Shown one piece after another: positions 6,221 through 22,192 of a stretch of DNA of 24,000 nucleotides. A model generated the notes under the pieces. That model had not been told where the DNA came from, searched no databases, and worked only from the letters and a program-made list of their open reading frames with translations. How positions within the stretch are numbered: the first letter of the stretch is position 1; each line of letters begins with the position of its first letter. This stretch comes from Comamonadaceae bacterium (lineage in GTDB: Bacteria; Pseudomonadota; Gammaproteobacteria; Burkholderiales; Burkholderiaceae_C): the NCBI GenBank assembly GCA_027488115.1, contig JAIYCG010000006.1, forward strand, positions 41,194 to 65,193, given 5' to 3'. The position numbers and the translations under genes are program-made.

Positions 6221-6248
6221 GCGGGCAAGTATAAATGGGGGTCAAATA

Positions 6249-6393
6249 ATTGGGGTCAGATCAACATTAATTTTGTCAATCAGAGTGGCTAAAGGCAAAG
6301 GGGGGCTTCCTCATACTGGAGTACCAGAAATCGTTCAGCCCCCCTTTGCCTTTAGCCACTCTGATTAGAAATTAATGTTGATCTGACCCCAAT
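6249..6393. mobile_element. 145-bp hairpin MITE, copy A (TA-flanked, IS630/mariner-like signature, non-autonomous)
   Basis: The 24-nt terminal inverted repeats are ATTGGGGTCAGATCAACATTAATT and AATTAATGTTGATCTGACCCCAAT. TA flanks both ends (6247-48 and 6394-95). A perfect 29-bp inner stem surrounds a 31-nt apical segment. The copy is near-identical to 11019-11163. Confidence 0.85.
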
Positions 6394-6767
6394 TAATTTT
6401 CGGCAACAGAGCCAATCACTGCAGAGCCTTGAGGCAATCCATCTGGGCCTCTGAGTATGGCCAAGTGGCCTTTCAATTTAATGGACGTGCCAGACTTGTG
6501 CATAAAGGGCAAAACACCATCCTTGCTAATGGCAAATTCTTTGACAACTCCCAGCGACTTTGAAAAGCAGTTGCTATGGGCTTGTTGCATCTTCACGGGG
6601 ATGACCATGTTGGCATGTTGGCCCATTGCCTCACTGGCTTCAAAGCCCAAAGCCAATTCGGCGGCTTTGTTCCATAAAGTAATGATGCCGTCGGTGTTTA
6701 CGGCGATCACAATATAAGACATATTTTCAATCAAGGATTGACTGGTTTGAGCGGTGGAGATGGTCAT
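6393..6767 (-). CDS. Stand-alone PAS domain protein with no output domain
   Basis: 124 aa. IVIAVNTDGIITLWNKAAELALGFEASEAMGQHANMVIP is a typical PAS S-box core. The stop codon TAA is formed at the MITE junction. Confidence 0.75.
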   Translation of the reverse strand: MTISTAQTSQSLIENMSYIVIAVNTDGIITLWNKAAELALGFEASEAMGQHANMVIPVKMQQAHSNCFSKSLGVVKEFAISKDGVLPFMHKSGTSIKLKGHLAILRGPDGLPQGSAVIGSVAEN

Positions 6768-10980: not shown

Positions 10981-11018
10981 ATTTATTCCTTTGATTAGTG
11001 AACATTTGGTGGCAAATA

Positions 11019-11163
11019 ATTGGGGTCAGATCAACATTAATTTCCAATCAGAGTGGCTAAAGGCAAAGGGGGGCTTCCTCATACTGGAGTACCAGAAATC
11101 GTTCAGCCCCCCTTTGCCTTTAGCCACTCTGATTGACAAAATTAATGTTGATCTGACCCCAAT
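11019..11163. mobile_element. 145-bp hairpin MITE, copy B
   Basis: It has the same 24-nt TIRs, inner stem and apical segment as copy A. TA flanks sit at 11017-18 and 11164-65. The arms are in the opposite orientation to copy A. Confidence 0.85.
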
Positions 11164-11168
11164 TATTC

Positions 11169-11927
11169 TCAAGACCCAAAGTGCATGCCGCCATTGACGT
11201 GCATGACTTGGCCGGTAATGAACTTGCCTTCATCTGATGCCAAAAAGCCAACCATGGCTGCAATGTCGTGGGCTTCGCCTTTGTGGCCCAGCATGGTTTC
11301 CATGCCGTAGGGGTGGTGTGGAATGTTGCCTGTTTCGGGGGCTCTGACTGTGTCAATGGGGCCAGGCGCAATGCAGTTCACCGTAATTTGTTGCTCACCC
11401 AATTCAATGGCCAAAGAACGGGCTAAGCCAACCAAACCGGCCTTGGAAGCTACCACGTGTGCTCTGTGGCTAGAGCCCCTGAATGCTGAAACACCCGACA
11501 CATAAACCAAGCGACCCATCTTGGGTTTCATGTGCGGCACCACTGCTTTGCTGCAAAGAAAAGCAGCATCTAAATTGGTGCCCATCACCTCGCGCCATTC
11601 CTTCAAAGAAGTTTCTAAAAGAGAGTTGACTCTTCGTATACCGGCGCAGTGAACAAAAATATCAACGCCACCAAATTGCGCAACAGTTTGTTTGACCATT
11701 TCCGTCACATTGTCTTCATCGGCAATGTTGGCAGGAAAGTGAAAAGCTTTTCCATTCAACTCGGCAATCAGAGCAAGTGTTTTTTCTGAGTCAGCATCTT
11801 TTTGCCGACTGTTGATGCAAACGTTTGCACCCAGTTTGGCCAGATGAAGTGCTACACCTCTTCCAATGTTGCGAGTCCCGCCGGTAATTAATGCGGTTCT
11901 TCCGCTCAGTGGCAATGTGGCGTTCAT
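11169..11927 (-). CDS. SDR-family oxidoreductase (FabG-like)
   Basis: 252 aa. Contains TALITGGTRNIGRG (a TGxxxGxG-type Rossmann motif), the NxAG-like HCAGI, and a catalytic Ser...Lys region of SDR type (VASKAG where YxxxK is expected). Confidence 0.9.
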   Translation of the reverse strand: MNATLPLSGRTALITGGTRNIGRGVALHLAKLGANVCINSRQKDADSEKTLALIAELNGKAFHFPANIADEDNVTEMVKQTVAQFGGVDIFVHCAGIRRVNSLLETSLKEWREVMGTNLDAAFLCSKAVVPHMKPKMGRLVYVSGVSAFRGSSHRAHVVASKAGLVGLARSLAIELGEQQITVNCIAPGPIDTVRAPETGNIPHHPYGMETMLGHKGEAHDIAAMVGFLASDEGKFITGQVMHVNGGMHFGS

Positions 11928-19357: not shown

Positions 19358-20161
19358 ATGACCCCTGAGACATTGCTGCATCACCTTGATCACGGCACGC
19401 TTTGGCCGGCAGCTGAGCTCGCAAGTATGCCTGAAGAAGTTGCGAGTGCCTACCAAACAGCCCTGAAAGTTCGAACACTGAGACAGGCAAGAGGCGAAGT
19501 ACCCAAGGGCTTCAAGATTGGTTTTACCAATCGCAGCATTTGGGAGCGCTATCAAGTTTTCGAGCCCATTTGGGGAACGGTATGGAACACGACGCTTAGT
19601 TTTGCCAACGAAGCAAGTGAATGTCATGTCGATATCTCTAATGTGTGCCAACCTCGGTTGGAGCCTGAATTGGTTTTTGGCATGCGTTGTACGCCGCCTG
19701 CCAACTTAACGCTACAAAGCCTGTATGAGTCTATTGATTGGATGGCCAGTGGATTTGAGGTGGTTCAGTCGCATGCAGACAACTGGAAATTCAAAGTGGC
19801 CGATACAGTGACTGACAGTGGCTTGCACGCCAAATTGGTGGTGGGTCAGCAAGTGAAGTTGTCGGACGTTGCCCAAAATGGCAATGAATTGCATACTTTG
19901 TTGTCGGGTATGTCCCTCGAACTTTTGCAAGCAGGTAAAAGTATAGAGAAGGGCGCTGCATCCAATGTTCTAGACAGCCCGCTAATGGCTTTGCATCACT
20001 TTTTGACAGCCCTCAGAAACTGCCCTGGTGCCCCCGATGTTCAAGCCGGCGATGTCATCACCACAGGCACTTGGACTGACGCGTGGCCCTTGGTAAAAGG
20101 CCAGCATTGGGAAAGCCGTTACGACCTACCCCTAACCGGACTCAAGCTGCAAGTCATTTAA
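19358..20161 (+). CDS. 2-keto-4-pentenoate hydratase-like protein (MhpD/HpcG-type, fumarylacetoacetate hydrolase superfamily)
   Basis: The start is trimmed to the ATG at 19358, with GGAG 7 nt upstream. The track start at 19133 is antisense to the 120-aa ORF. Supporting motifs are VRTLRQARGEVPKGFKIGFTN and GDVITTGTWT. The TAA stop is formed at the solo-TIR junction. Confidence 0.8.
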   Translation: MTPETLLHHLDHGTLWPAAELASMPEEVASAYQTALKVRTLRQARGEVPKGFKIGFTNRSIWERYQVFEPIWGTVWNTTLSFANEASECHVDISNVCQPRLEPELVFGMRCTPPANLTLQSLYESIDWMASGFEVVQSHADNWKFKVADTVTDSGLHAKLVVGQQVKLSDVAQNGNELHTLLSGMSLELLQAGKSIEKGAASNVLDSPLMALHHFLTALRNCPGAPDVQAGDVITTGTWTDAWPLVKGQHWESRYDLPLTGLKLQVI

Positions 20162-20184
20162 TTGGGGTCAGATCAACATTAATT
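20161..20184 (+). repeat. Solo MITE terminus (left-type TIR) preceded by TA
   Basis: ATTGGGGTCAGATCAACATTAATT is identical to the TIR of copies A and B, and TA lies at 20159-60. It fills exactly the gap between the convergent hydratase and hicB genes: the hydratase stop overlaps its first base and the hicB stop overlaps its last. Confidence 0.8.
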
Positions 20185-20579
20185 TACTCAACAGTTAAAG
20201 CCAGATGCGCAATGAGACCAGACCTGGTTTCGCCATATTTTTTGGCTTTTGAATCCAAGCGCGCCAATACCCTTTTGGGCAGGGTAATGTTAACTCGCTC
20301 TACTTCGTCAGACATCAATGCCGGATCGACCTCGACCATTGCCCAGATCCAGCCTTTGAACTCTTTGTGCTTTTGCAGGTGAGAAATAGGGCTTGGTTTG
20401 GGGATAACTTGATCCATGTCCAAAGCGGTTTCAATCCACAACTCGATGGCCTCTTTGGTGTTTTCGATGGCTTCGTCAATGCCTTGATCTGAAGCGGAAA
20501 AGCAACCAGGCAGGTCAGGCACGACAACGCCCCAAGTTTGAGTTGCGGTTGCAGGCTCTATGGCAATTGGGAATTTCAT
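20184..20579 (-). CDS. hicB: HicB antitoxin (HicB N-terminal fold plus C-terminal ribbon-helix-helix)
   Basis: 131 aa. MKFPIAIEPATATQTWGVVVPDLPGCFSASDQGIDEAIENTKEAIELW is a canonical HicB N-domain. The C-terminal VNITLPKRVLARLDSKAKKYGETRSGLIAHLAL is RHH/CopG-like. It lies 3 nt downstream of hicA. Confidence 0.9.
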   Translation of the reverse strand: MKFPIAIEPATATQTWGVVVPDLPGCFSASDQGIDEAIENTKEAIELWIETALDMDQVIPKPSPISHLQKHKEFKGWIWAMVEVDPALMSDEVERVNITLPKRVLARLDSKAKKYGETRSGLIAHLALTVE

Positions 20580-20582
20580 AAT

Positions 20583-20771
20583 TTACTGATCCTTTAATCC
20601 AGACTGCTTTAGCAGTTTAGCCAGCAATCCGGTACCTAAATCTTTGCTGCTAAGAGGAACACTGATGTGACCTGCGCGAAGCGGATGTACATAAACATGG
20701 TGTGATCCTTTGATGCCGCGCAGTTGCCAGCCATTGCGCAATAACAGTGCGATGAACTCTTTGCTTTTCAT
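20583..20771 (-). CDS. hicA: HicA mRNA-interferase toxin
   Basis: 62 aa. MKSKEFIALLLRNGWQLRGIKGSHHVYVHP...ISVPLSSKDLGTGLLAKLLKQSGL matches the HicA/YcfA pattern, including the catalytic GSHH. Confidence 0.9.
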   Translation of the reverse strand: MKSKEFIALLLRNGWQLRGIKGSHHVYVHPLRAGHISVPLSSKDLGTGLLAKLLKQSGLKDQ

Positions 20772-20780
20772 TCAAGCAAG

Positions 20781-20797
20781 ATACACACTATACACAC
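20781..20797 (-). promoter_or_regulatory. Possible hicAB promoter/operator: tandem 8-mers overlapping a -10-like box
   Basis: The minus strand reads GTGTGTAT-A-GTGTGTAT 9 nt upstream of the hicA ATG, with TATAGT (20787-20792) as a -10 candidate. The -35 is poor (cTTGTa at 17 nt). This is motif inspection only. Confidence 0.2.
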
Positions 20798-20827
20798 AAA
20801 CGACAATGTACAAGTGCTTGCAGAATA

Positions 20828-20972
20828 ATTGAGGTCAGATCAACATTAATTTCCAATCAAAGGGGAGAAAGCCTAAGGGGGGCTTCCTCATACTGGCGTA
20901 CCAGAAATCGTTCAGCCCCCCTTAGGCTTTCTCCCCTTTGATTGACCAAATTAATGTTGATCTGACCCCAAT
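20828..20972. mobile_element. 145-bp hairpin MITE, copy C (divergent inner stem)
   Basis: It has the same architecture and TA flanks (20826-27 and 20973-74). The left TIR has one G>A change (20832). The apical segment has one A>C change (20897). The inner 29-bp stem differs from A and B at six positions per arm, all compensated. Confidence 0.85.
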
Positions 20973-22192
20973 TATTTAGGTCTGTCCTTCTCGGGATATT
21001 GGTCAAAAACTGCACCCTGTTCAAACAGTGCTTGAATTTCTTCGGTTGAATAACCCAACTCAACAAGTACCTGCTTGGAGTGCTGACCAAGCCAAGGCGC
21101 GGGCATTCGAATGGTACTCAGTGCACCGCTAGATTTAATGGGCAAGCCTATGGTTTTCATGGGGCCAATGATGGGGTGGTCTATGTCGTGAACCATTTTT
21201 CGCGCATGAATGTGCGGGTCGTTCATGATTTGCTCATAGCCAAAAACAGGGCCACCTGGAATGCCTGCCGCATCCATTTTGCCAACCCAATGTGCAGTTG
21301 ACTCTTGCATCAAAATGGCCTCAATGTCTCGTTCTAATGCATCCGCATTTTTAACGCGCAAAGCTTGCGTGATGTAGAGAGGATTAGACGGCCAATCGGG
21401 CTTCTCAACCACTTTTTCGCAAAACACCAGCCATAGTTTTTGAGACCCTGCGCCCACAGTGACATAACCATCTGCACTTCGATAAGCCTGGTAGGGCGCC
21501 GCGCGGCGGTGCCTTGTGCCCGTAGACGTGGGTATTTCACCCGATCCAAAAAACGCGCCAAACTCCCAAGCTGTCCAGGCAAGGCCGGCTTCTAACAAAG
21601 AGGTTTCAAGGTACTGACCTGTGCCAAAACGTAATTTACCAATCAAGGCCCCCAAAATACCAGAAAGTGCCGTCACGCCACTTGCAATGTCGTTCATGGC
21701 AATGCCCACTTTGACAGGGCGTCCACCGGGTTCACCAGTCATCAGCATGATGCCCGACATGCCTTGCGCAATGATGTCAAAGCCGCCCTTTTTGCCATAA
21801 GGCCCCGTCTGACCAAAGCCAGACAAAGAAGCATAAATGACGCTTGGGTTGACAGCCTTAACTGTCTCGTATCCCAAGCCCATGCGCTTCACAACGCCCG
21901 GCCGAAAGTTCTCCAAGATAATGTCTGCTTTAGAAGCCAAGTCCAAGGCGATCTTCAAACCTCCAGGGTCTTTTAAATTGAGCGCAACACTTTGTTTGTT
22001 CCGGTTCAGCACCGCAAAGCAATAAGACTCGCCATTCACCTGAGGCTCAAAACTTCTAGAAGAATCGCCCTTGTTGGCGTTTTCAATTTTGATCACCTCT
22101 GCACCCATGTCACCCAAGACCATGCTGCAGTAAGGCCCCGCCAGCACGTTGGTTAAATCAAGAACACGAATGCCAGACAAGGGGAGGGTCAT
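20972..22192 (-). CDS. Family III CoA-transferase (CaiB/BaiF/formyl-CoA transferase-like)
   Basis: 406 aa. LSGIRVLDLTNVLAGPYCSMVLGDMGAEVIKIE is the canonical family III N-terminus. The TAA stop is formed at the MITE C junction. Confidence 0.9.
   Translation of the reverse strand: MTLPLSGIRVLDLTNVLAGPYCSMVLGDMGAEVIKIENANKGDSSRSFEPQVNGESYCFAVLNRNKQSVALNLKDPGGLKIALDLASKADIILENFRPGVVKRMGLGYETVKAVNPSVIYASLSGFGQTGPYGKKGGFDIIAQGMSGIMLMTGEPGGRPVKVGIAMNDIASGVTALSGILGALIGKLRFGTGQYLETSLLEAGLAWTAWEFGAFFGSGEIPTSTGTRHRRAAPYQAYRSADGYVTVGAGSQKLWLVFCEKVVEKPDWPSNPLYITQALRVKNADALERDIEAILMQESTAHWVGKMDAAGIPGGPVFGYEQIMNDPHIHARKMVHDIDHPIIGPMKTIGLPIKSSGALSTIRMPAPWLGQHSKQVLVELGYSTEEIQALFEQGAVFDQYPEKDRPK

Follow-up and report, generated by a model that had tools for sequence, protein, structure and literature searches.

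The inverted repeats analysed here belong to REPIN-type elements that carry inside them a hairpin of a separate family, and across both the element and the hairpin only the pairing of the stem appears to matter. In the reading that we prefer and that is best supported by the sequences, to which we give a probability of about 0.6, the hairpin would act as a strand-specific single-stranded form, probably of DNA, whose pairing is kept by selection and whose matched changes arise through arm-templated copying. The initial annotation of the window (the whole stretch of 24 kb that was analysed) had noticed six fully compensated base-pair changes in one of three related copies, and had suggested either selection on a hairpin or the copying of one arm from the other. 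Both suggestions gained support, selection from a strand-specific tolerance of wobble pairs, and copying from loop flips, mirrored indels, transversions and deletions through the centre.

Anatomy of the elements and the changes in copy C

The window holds three doublet copies (A, B and C) and one solo REP. The REP cores of A, B and C form inverted pairs, 117 nt apart. The features on which the analysis bears are the following.

6244-6398, no strand: copy A, with stem and loop as in B and the loop flipped relative to the asymmetric spacers (L-F-S)
11014-11168, no strand: copy B (S-F-L)
20156-20185, plus strand: solo REP, ATTTAATT followed by GGGGTCAGATCAACATTAATTT, directly 3' of the stop codon of a 342-aa gene
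20184-20579, minus strand: hicB (Pfam HicB_lk_antitox, 3e-48)
20583-20771, minus strand: hicA (Pfam HicA_toxin, 8e-17)
20823-20977, no strand: copy C, whole element, made of an outer 8 nt, REP, spacer, hairpin, spacer, REP' and an outer 8 nt
20831-20852, plus strand: left REP core of copy C, GAGGTCAGATCAACATTAATTT, with one uncompensated change at 20832
20854-20883, plus strand: 5' arm of the inner stem of copy C, variable, 30 nt including C20854
20884-20914, plus strand: loop of copy C, conserved, 31 nt, TTCCTCATACTGGCGTACCAGAAATCGTTCA, which we call loop F on the plus strand
20915-20944, plus strand: 3' arm of the inner stem of copy C, exact complement of 20854-20883
20948-20969, minus strand: right REP core of copy C, inverted

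The arrangement of copy C is S-F-L: its left spacer is short, its right spacer is long, and loop F lies on the plus strand. A covarying mini-hairpin, CTGG-CGTA-CCAG, lies within its loop at 20893-20904. The whole element is predicted to fold into one hairpin on either strand, with energies of -63 and -66 kcal/mol as DNA and z-scores of -17 and -18.

The left arm of copy C at 20855-20883 (AATCAAAGGGGAGAAAGCCTAAGGGGGGC) finds its exact reverse complement at 20915-20943. Copies A and B share another arm, AATCAGAGTGGCTAAAGGCAAAGGGGGGC, which is perfectly paired in both (6278-6306 with 6338-6366 in A, 11046-11074 with 11106-11134 in B). Comparison of these arms bears out that copy C differs at exactly six positions, 20860, 20863, 20866, 20867, 20872 and 20874, and that all six differences are compensated at the mirror positions 20938, 20935, 20932, 20931, 20926 and 20924. 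One of the six is a transition and five are transversions. The uncompensated changes, announced as one in the terminal repeat and one in the apical segment, could be located at 20832, where the left REP reads GAGG for GGGG, and at 20897, where the apical segment has C for A. The inner stem was described as perfectly paired over 29 bp; the pairing is indeed perfect, but C20854 pairs with G20944 and the stem therefore counts 30 bp.

Across loci the elements lie between ORFs, mostly a few bases past a stop codon and often between convergent genes. In the window, each of the three copies and the solo REP has the stop codon of an adjacent gene within its outer 8 nt or abutting them (6393-6395, 11169-11171, 20159-20161 and 20972-20974). 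The solo REP, hicB, hicA and copy C (20156-20977) together form a REP-bounded toxin-antitoxin unit with 802 bp between REP cores. Likewise, a MazE/AbrB and PIN pair lies between inverted REPs in locus L085 (1049-2013), and the same pair is present in L043. Such cassettes of toxin and antitoxin genes may be carried along, or trapped, by pairs of REPs.

Identity of the repeats and covariation of the stems

The 22-mer that forms the left REP of copy C also brackets RAYT genes in related genomes. At three loci (L033, L037 and L076), units of 844-845 bp with inverted REPs at their ends encode a protein of 230-232 aa, which scores 81.2 bits against the NCBIfam equivalog REP_Tyr_transpos (REP-associated tyrosine transposase; cut-off 80) and matches Pfam Y1_Tnp at 1.7e-11. 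Its close homologues are named "REP-associated tyrosine transposase" by NCBI, the matches listed in the protein search being at least 89% identical, and the nearest solved structure is that of E. coli TnpA-REP (PDB 4ER8). All RAYT homologues in the collected loci (7/7) adjoin a REP. The three units have both flanks in common and thus occupy the same chromosomal site. The 24-kb window has no RAYT gene inside it, and the association comes from related genomes. Because the same terminal repeat brackets the RAYT gene there, copies A, B and C are, on sequence grounds, REPIN-type REP doublets presumably served by RAYT, and the repeat called TIR in the initial annotation is a REP. RAYTs are Y1/HUH transposases of the IS200/IS605 type, enzymes whose substrate is folded single-stranded DNA.

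The element is not a MITE of the kind with terminal inverted repeats and target-site duplications, and in this respect the annotation has to be revised towards a REP doublet tied to RAYT. No direct target-site duplication was found at the flanks; outside GGGG, the 7-10 nt on one side are inverted-complementary to those on the other, and they covary. The long units with these ends contain RAYT, toxin-antitoxin pairs or ordinary genes, and a DDE transposase in no case. For a single 30-nt REP unit the predicted folding energy is 0 kcal/mol, a value that shuffled sequences reach as well; the unit thus lacks the palindrome of a classical REP.

Several side observations concern the sites of these elements. 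Most public contigs encoding this RAYT are only about 1 kb long (proteins P0001-P0120), the assemblies breaking at the flanking repeats, and several repeat-bearing loci are binned as Flavobacteriales, Singulisphaera, Algoriphagus or Bacillota, probably by mis-binning. A partial REP start (GGGGTCA) and 7 nt precede many copies, for instance at 6237-6243 of the window and in the flanks of L009, L021, L059 and L060. Nesting within or among other palindromic REP elements is seen at L046 7229-7424, L063 3314-3514, L112 161-357, L080 and L094. One chromosomal site is occupied in seven genomes (L005, L009, L018, L066, L070, L101 and L108); the elements there have four or more different stems and face either way relative to the flanks. 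It seems that elements insert into each other and that a chromosomal site can be used more than once.

An exact scan for the REP core, with one genome per species, gave at least 113 loci, nearly all from Limnohabitans and other freshwater Comamonadaceae; a scan of viral contigs for the REP gave no match. The spacing between inverted REP cores falls into classes of about 34, 71, 135 and 844 bp, and among the loci listed about 60 copies from related genomes are of the 135-bp type, which is the one seen in the window. Hardly any variation is seen among them in the terminal repeat and in the 31-nt apical segment, and the inner stem differs in almost every copy. Diversity amounts to 0.018 in the loop and about 0.02 in the REP core, as against 0.376 in the stem core. 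Doublets of about 71 bp (L015 564-634, L053 2979-3048, L077 7720-7790 and about 25 others) represent a second kind of REP doublet, with a different and asymmetric interior that contains a semi-conserved GCATAG and a small variable hairpin.

We analyzed the covariation in an alignment of 54 family members from Limnohabitans and other Comamonadaceae genomes. Stems are perfect in 29 of the 54 copies and have 1-3 mismatches in the others, and RNAalifold predicts one long hairpin from the alignment. Paired cells make up 96-97.1% of the observed alignment against 85.4% in shuffles, and fall to 29-51% when partners are slid by 1-3 columns. Both sides have changed in 37 of 64 pairs, including 27 of the 30 inner-stem pairs (22.1 of 64 in shuffles), and the covariation score is 0.300 against 0.084 in shuffles; none of 500 shuffles attains the observed values. 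Even within the conserved loop, one pair of the mini-hairpin switches between CG (38 copies) and GC (14 copies).

With this larger set of copies, the covariation check that had been suggested could be run, and it found few uncompensated changes and support that 0/500 shuffles match. It had also been asked whether the stem variants form discrete subfamilies or a continuum. Pairwise stem distances are unimodal with a peak at 6-8 of 30, all intermediates are found and nearly each copy has its own stem; the variants thus form a continuum, and the C-type stem is not simply a second ancient subfamily. The six pairs of copy C are the distance separating two lineages of a diverse population, and not six events within this copy. 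The core of the initial proposal, that it is pairing and not sequence that is maintained in a hairpin, is strongly supported across the 54 copies.

In one element (L109 1625-1762) the arms derive from two distinct stem lineages, with 14 of 29 positions left without a partner, and each spacer is a long one. This element looks like a recombinant of two copies; it shares its chromosomal site with a third stem type in L058.

A profile search also recovered the 31-nt apical segment without any nearby REP, closed by perfect stems of unrelated sequence. When metagenomes were scanned with the loop core, 117 of 150 occurrences had no REPs and stood on unrelated stems, so that the REP-less state is the commoner one. 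These metagenome hairpins have stems of between 10 and 28 bp, in numerous sequence subfamilies; the window's CAATCA-type stem represents the subfamily embedded in REPs. On these comparisons, the interior of the element belongs to a hairpin family of its own and of wider occurrence, in which a conserved loop of 28-31 nt is closed by a stem of 10-30 bp; of this stem the pairing is kept, and not the sequence. The REP-less hairpins often occur as inverted doublets, and all adjacent pairs (12/12) share the same relative orientation. In the commonest doublet a GCTGGG-type hairpin is followed by a conserved spacer of about 45 nt (TGCGAACAGnAGTGTTGGT...) and by a GTTGAG-type hairpin.

Examples of such REP-less doublets are L116 898-1103, L155 6979-7184, L191 239-444, L134 2642-2846 and L126 3112-3316. 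At L015, L016 and L233, REP elements lie inside loop-hairpin doublets or replace part of them, and L015 also contains, at 740-860, a tandem repeat of about 48 nt that takes in the end of one hairpin arm (CCTCTCAAGCCTCTGTCCGAAGAGAAGTGCCCCC...).

The hairpin family seems not to have been described before, as it is absent from Rfam and from the searchable literature. Searches of Rfam with the window, the element and the hairpin doublet gave no match at the gathering score and, at permissive thresholds, only generic miRNA-precursor hairpins far below cut-off; the loop sequence retrieved only irrelevant matches from the searchable literature. No RAYT or other protein was found beside the REP-less hairpins, a relaxed tblastn search for a second RAYT included. 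Among the collected loci, a search for empty sites of these hairpins gave none and turned up one orthologous pair in which both sites are occupied. Inspection of the sequence also led us to reject Tn3-family ends, dif/Xer sites and attC cores, as well as a small ORF that would begin at the ATG of the loop.

The folded strand and the origin of the matched changes

The mismatches that remain in the stems were counted with each copy oriented by its loop, an A·C on the loop-F strand being a G·T (G·U) on the complement. On the loop-F strand, the REP-embedded copies display 24 A·C-type against 4 G·T-type mismatches, and the REP-less metagenome hairpins 55 against 4. In the latter, the counts become 43 against 4 when shared events are collapsed (p = 3e-9) and 23 against 2 with one vote per stem cluster (p = 2e-5). 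This asymmetry follows the loop and not the spacer bulge. The wobble-tolerant strand is the complement of loop F, on which the loop reads CTGAACGATTTCTGGTAC... An asymmetry confined to one strand therefore calls for a strand-specific single-stranded form in which wobble pairs are tolerated and other mismatches are not. Judging from this pattern, one specific strand is the folded form.

The other question is how both arms come to change together. A minimum spanning tree of the stems contains 92 compensated against 19 one-arm changes; the former comprise 43 transitions and 49 transversions, the latter 18 transitions and 1 transversion (Fisher p = 8e-5). The orientation of the loop relative to the asymmetric 1x3 bulge of the spacers is balanced (23:22), and a loop flip separates copies with identical or near-identical stems, including A and B of the window. 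The asymmetric bulge is kept in 45 of 55 copies, and symmetrised variants (S-S and L-L) are also present. Short derivatives, in which the REP cores lie 33-35, 78 or 86 bp apart, are palindromic across the centre without a mismatch, as found at L023 1787-1819, L010 1772-1805, L024 4061-4138 and L036 3565-3650; such short palindromic size classes are expected from a symmetric loss of the hairpin tip. In a published study, replication template switching can repair several stem mismatches at once, make perfect stems and invert loops (PMC8794818). Matched changes and flips most likely reflect arm copying, which would fit them better than independent second-site mutations do. Template switching alone, on the other hand, does not predict the strand-specific wobble and does not explain the conserved loop.

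Between the orthologous hairpins of L015 and L016, the stems show mirrored substitutions as well as three indels that are mirrored too; 1 of the 31 loop positions differs, and the non-coding DNA beside the hairpins is, by eye, about one third diverged. Similarity between REP-embedded copies at orthologous sites does not exceed that of random pairs, and the stems at such sites are often unrelated. Because of these unrelated stems and of the re-use of sites marked by partial REPs, replacement by a new copy is possible for most pairs, and for the same reasons in-place arm copying rests mainly on the one orthologous pair. A profile search for decayed relics found almost no full-length ones in about 900 kb.

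A tolerance of G·U is a classic signature of RNA, and the hairpin could thus be a functional RNA (a 3'-UTR stabiliser, a terminator, a processing site or a small RNA) in which compensatory changes pass through G·U intermediates. The one-strand pattern of G·U versus A·C is indeed the textbook mark of a transcribed structured RNA; the elements lie directly past stop codons, and a covarying mini-hairpin sits inside the loop. We nevertheless regard this explanation as unlikely. The wobble-tolerant strand is not biased towards the mRNA sense in any of three data sets (26 vs 32, 23 vs 25, and 9 vs 11 for singletons), although the underlying gene calls are crude long-ORF calls that make this a weak test; on these crude calls, the reading as a read-through RNA finds no support. 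The flanks have no conserved stretch able to hold a promoter, no U-tract is found 3' of the stem, the matches in Rfam do not rise above generic hairpin noise, and half of the compensated changes are transversions, for which there is no wobble route. The folded form is more likely single-stranded DNA than RNA, an assumption that we base on the association with RAYT and on the established preference of Y1/HUH transposases for DNA that is single-stranded and folded. A comparison of loop orientation with the local GC skew, as a sign of replication-strand bias, gave weak and non-significant trends (33:22 and 44:33).

One would also wonder if selection on the fold is needed at all. A purely mechanical homogenisation, by template switching or gene conversion between the arms of a long palindrome, would account for the loop flips (23:22), the symmetrised spacers, the perfect deletion derivatives through the centre, the mirrored indels and a share of transversions close to the raw mutation spectrum, and the process itself is documented (PMC8794818). 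However, it leaves unexplained the residual G·T pairs on one loop-defined strand (43:4), the diversity of about 2% in loop and REP versus 38% in the stem core, and the persistence of the 1x3 bulge in 45/55 copies; we consider it quite unlikely as the whole explanation. A classical MITE, in which the C-type and A/B-type stems would descend from two ancient master copies mobilised by a DDE transposase and pairing would no longer be maintained, is highly improbable. The elements do resemble MITEs by their terminal inverted repeats and by being small, multicopy and intergenic. On the other hand, nearly each copy has its own stem with unimodal distances and every intermediate, the flanks are inverted-complementary rather than directly duplicated, and the sole transposase bracketed by the repeats is RAYT; the flanks, the covariation and the stem distances together refute a scheme of two subfamilies.

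Our preferred reading combines selection on one folded strand with arm-templated copying. The element would act as a folded single strand, the one whose loop reads CTGAACGATTTCTGGTACNCCAGTATGAGGAAG; this strand would most probably be single-stranded DNA, exposed at replication or during mobilisation and probably handled by a Y1/HUH enzyme. Stems that are unpaired on the folded strand would not be propagated, and only G·T wobbles would be tolerated. The matched changes would most likely be produced in one step, by an intramolecular template switch at the palindrome that copies one arm from the other, and the same event could invert the loop. A more far-reaching hypothesis, which we put forward only tentatively and hold to be rather doubtful, is that the hairpin is an undescribed strand-specific single-stranded DNA element of freshwater Burkholderiales, whose 31-nt loop would be read by an HUH-type or other ssDNA-binding enzyme and whose stem would be rebuilt from one arm at each copying. 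It would thus be a self-templating replicator that rides in REP doublets as well.

Comparison with known systems

REPINs have been argued to be long-lived, vertically inherited replicators within bacterial genomes, and how they keep their hairpins intact is a mechanistic question that the present family addresses. Its 30-bp stem is hypervariable, its conserved loop identifies the strand and its bulge the orientation, which makes it an uncommonly clean system for separating selection on a folded strand from arm-templated copying. The data also draw attention to a hairpin family that is widespread among abundant freshwater bacteria. That stem changes are compensated in a REPIN hairpin is an already published observation (2011, PMC3116915); what appear to be new are the independent family of conserved-loop hairpins, the strand-specific wobble signature and the flip-flop of the loop.

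Other hairpin-forming elements provide only partial parallels. The Correia elements of Neisseria, ERIC and YPAL are small intergenic repeats with inverted ends that can form long hairpins. Unlike the present elements, they show target-site duplications and a link to DDE-type transposition, and we know of no hairpin MITE among them described with hypervariable paired stems around a conserved loop. In the attC sites of integrons it is the structure and not the sequence that is conserved; they fold as single-stranded DNA, and extra unpaired bases select the active strand. An analogy can be drawn with the 1x3 bulge and the strand-specific pairing of our elements. However, there is here no integrase and no cassette array, the apical loop is the conserved part, and by inspection the R''/R' core consensus of attC is unmatched.

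Quasi-palindromes are reportedly subject to template-switch mutation, a model attributed to Ripley. The present elements show the perfect stems, mirrored insertions and inversion of the loop that are predicted by this process (Mönttinen & Löytynoja 2022, PMC8794818), and compensations of several bases that, as predicted, may have arisen in one step. Template switching is, unlike the present elements, a general mutational process and not an element family.

Y1/HUH enzymes recognise folded hairpins on one DNA strand, which fits a strand-specific constraint on pairing that is unlinked to transcription. A Y1/HUH transposase, homologous by sequence, is shared with the REP/BIME and TnpA-REP system of E. 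coli (PDB 4ER8) and with IS200/IS605 elements such as IS608. The E. coli REP has a conserved stem and a required 5' GTAG, whereas in the present elements conservation lies in the loop, and the stem is free to vary. The comparison with IS200/IS605 is one of sequence homology.

The closest parallel is that with REPINs and RAYTs. In the REPINs of Pseudomonas fluorescens SBW25, compensatory changes are common in the spacers (Bertels & Rainey 2011, PMC3116915). The present elements share with this system the conserved inverted REPs, a less conserved spacer, the long hairpin with its compensatory changes, the extragenic and multicopy distribution, and the presence of the same REP at the flanks of a RAYT gene (PMC3116915). 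They differ from it in that the single REP has no palindrome of its own, that REP pairs also bound toxin-antitoxin genes, and above all in the conserved 31-nt apical module, which occurs without REPs too and in two loop orientations.
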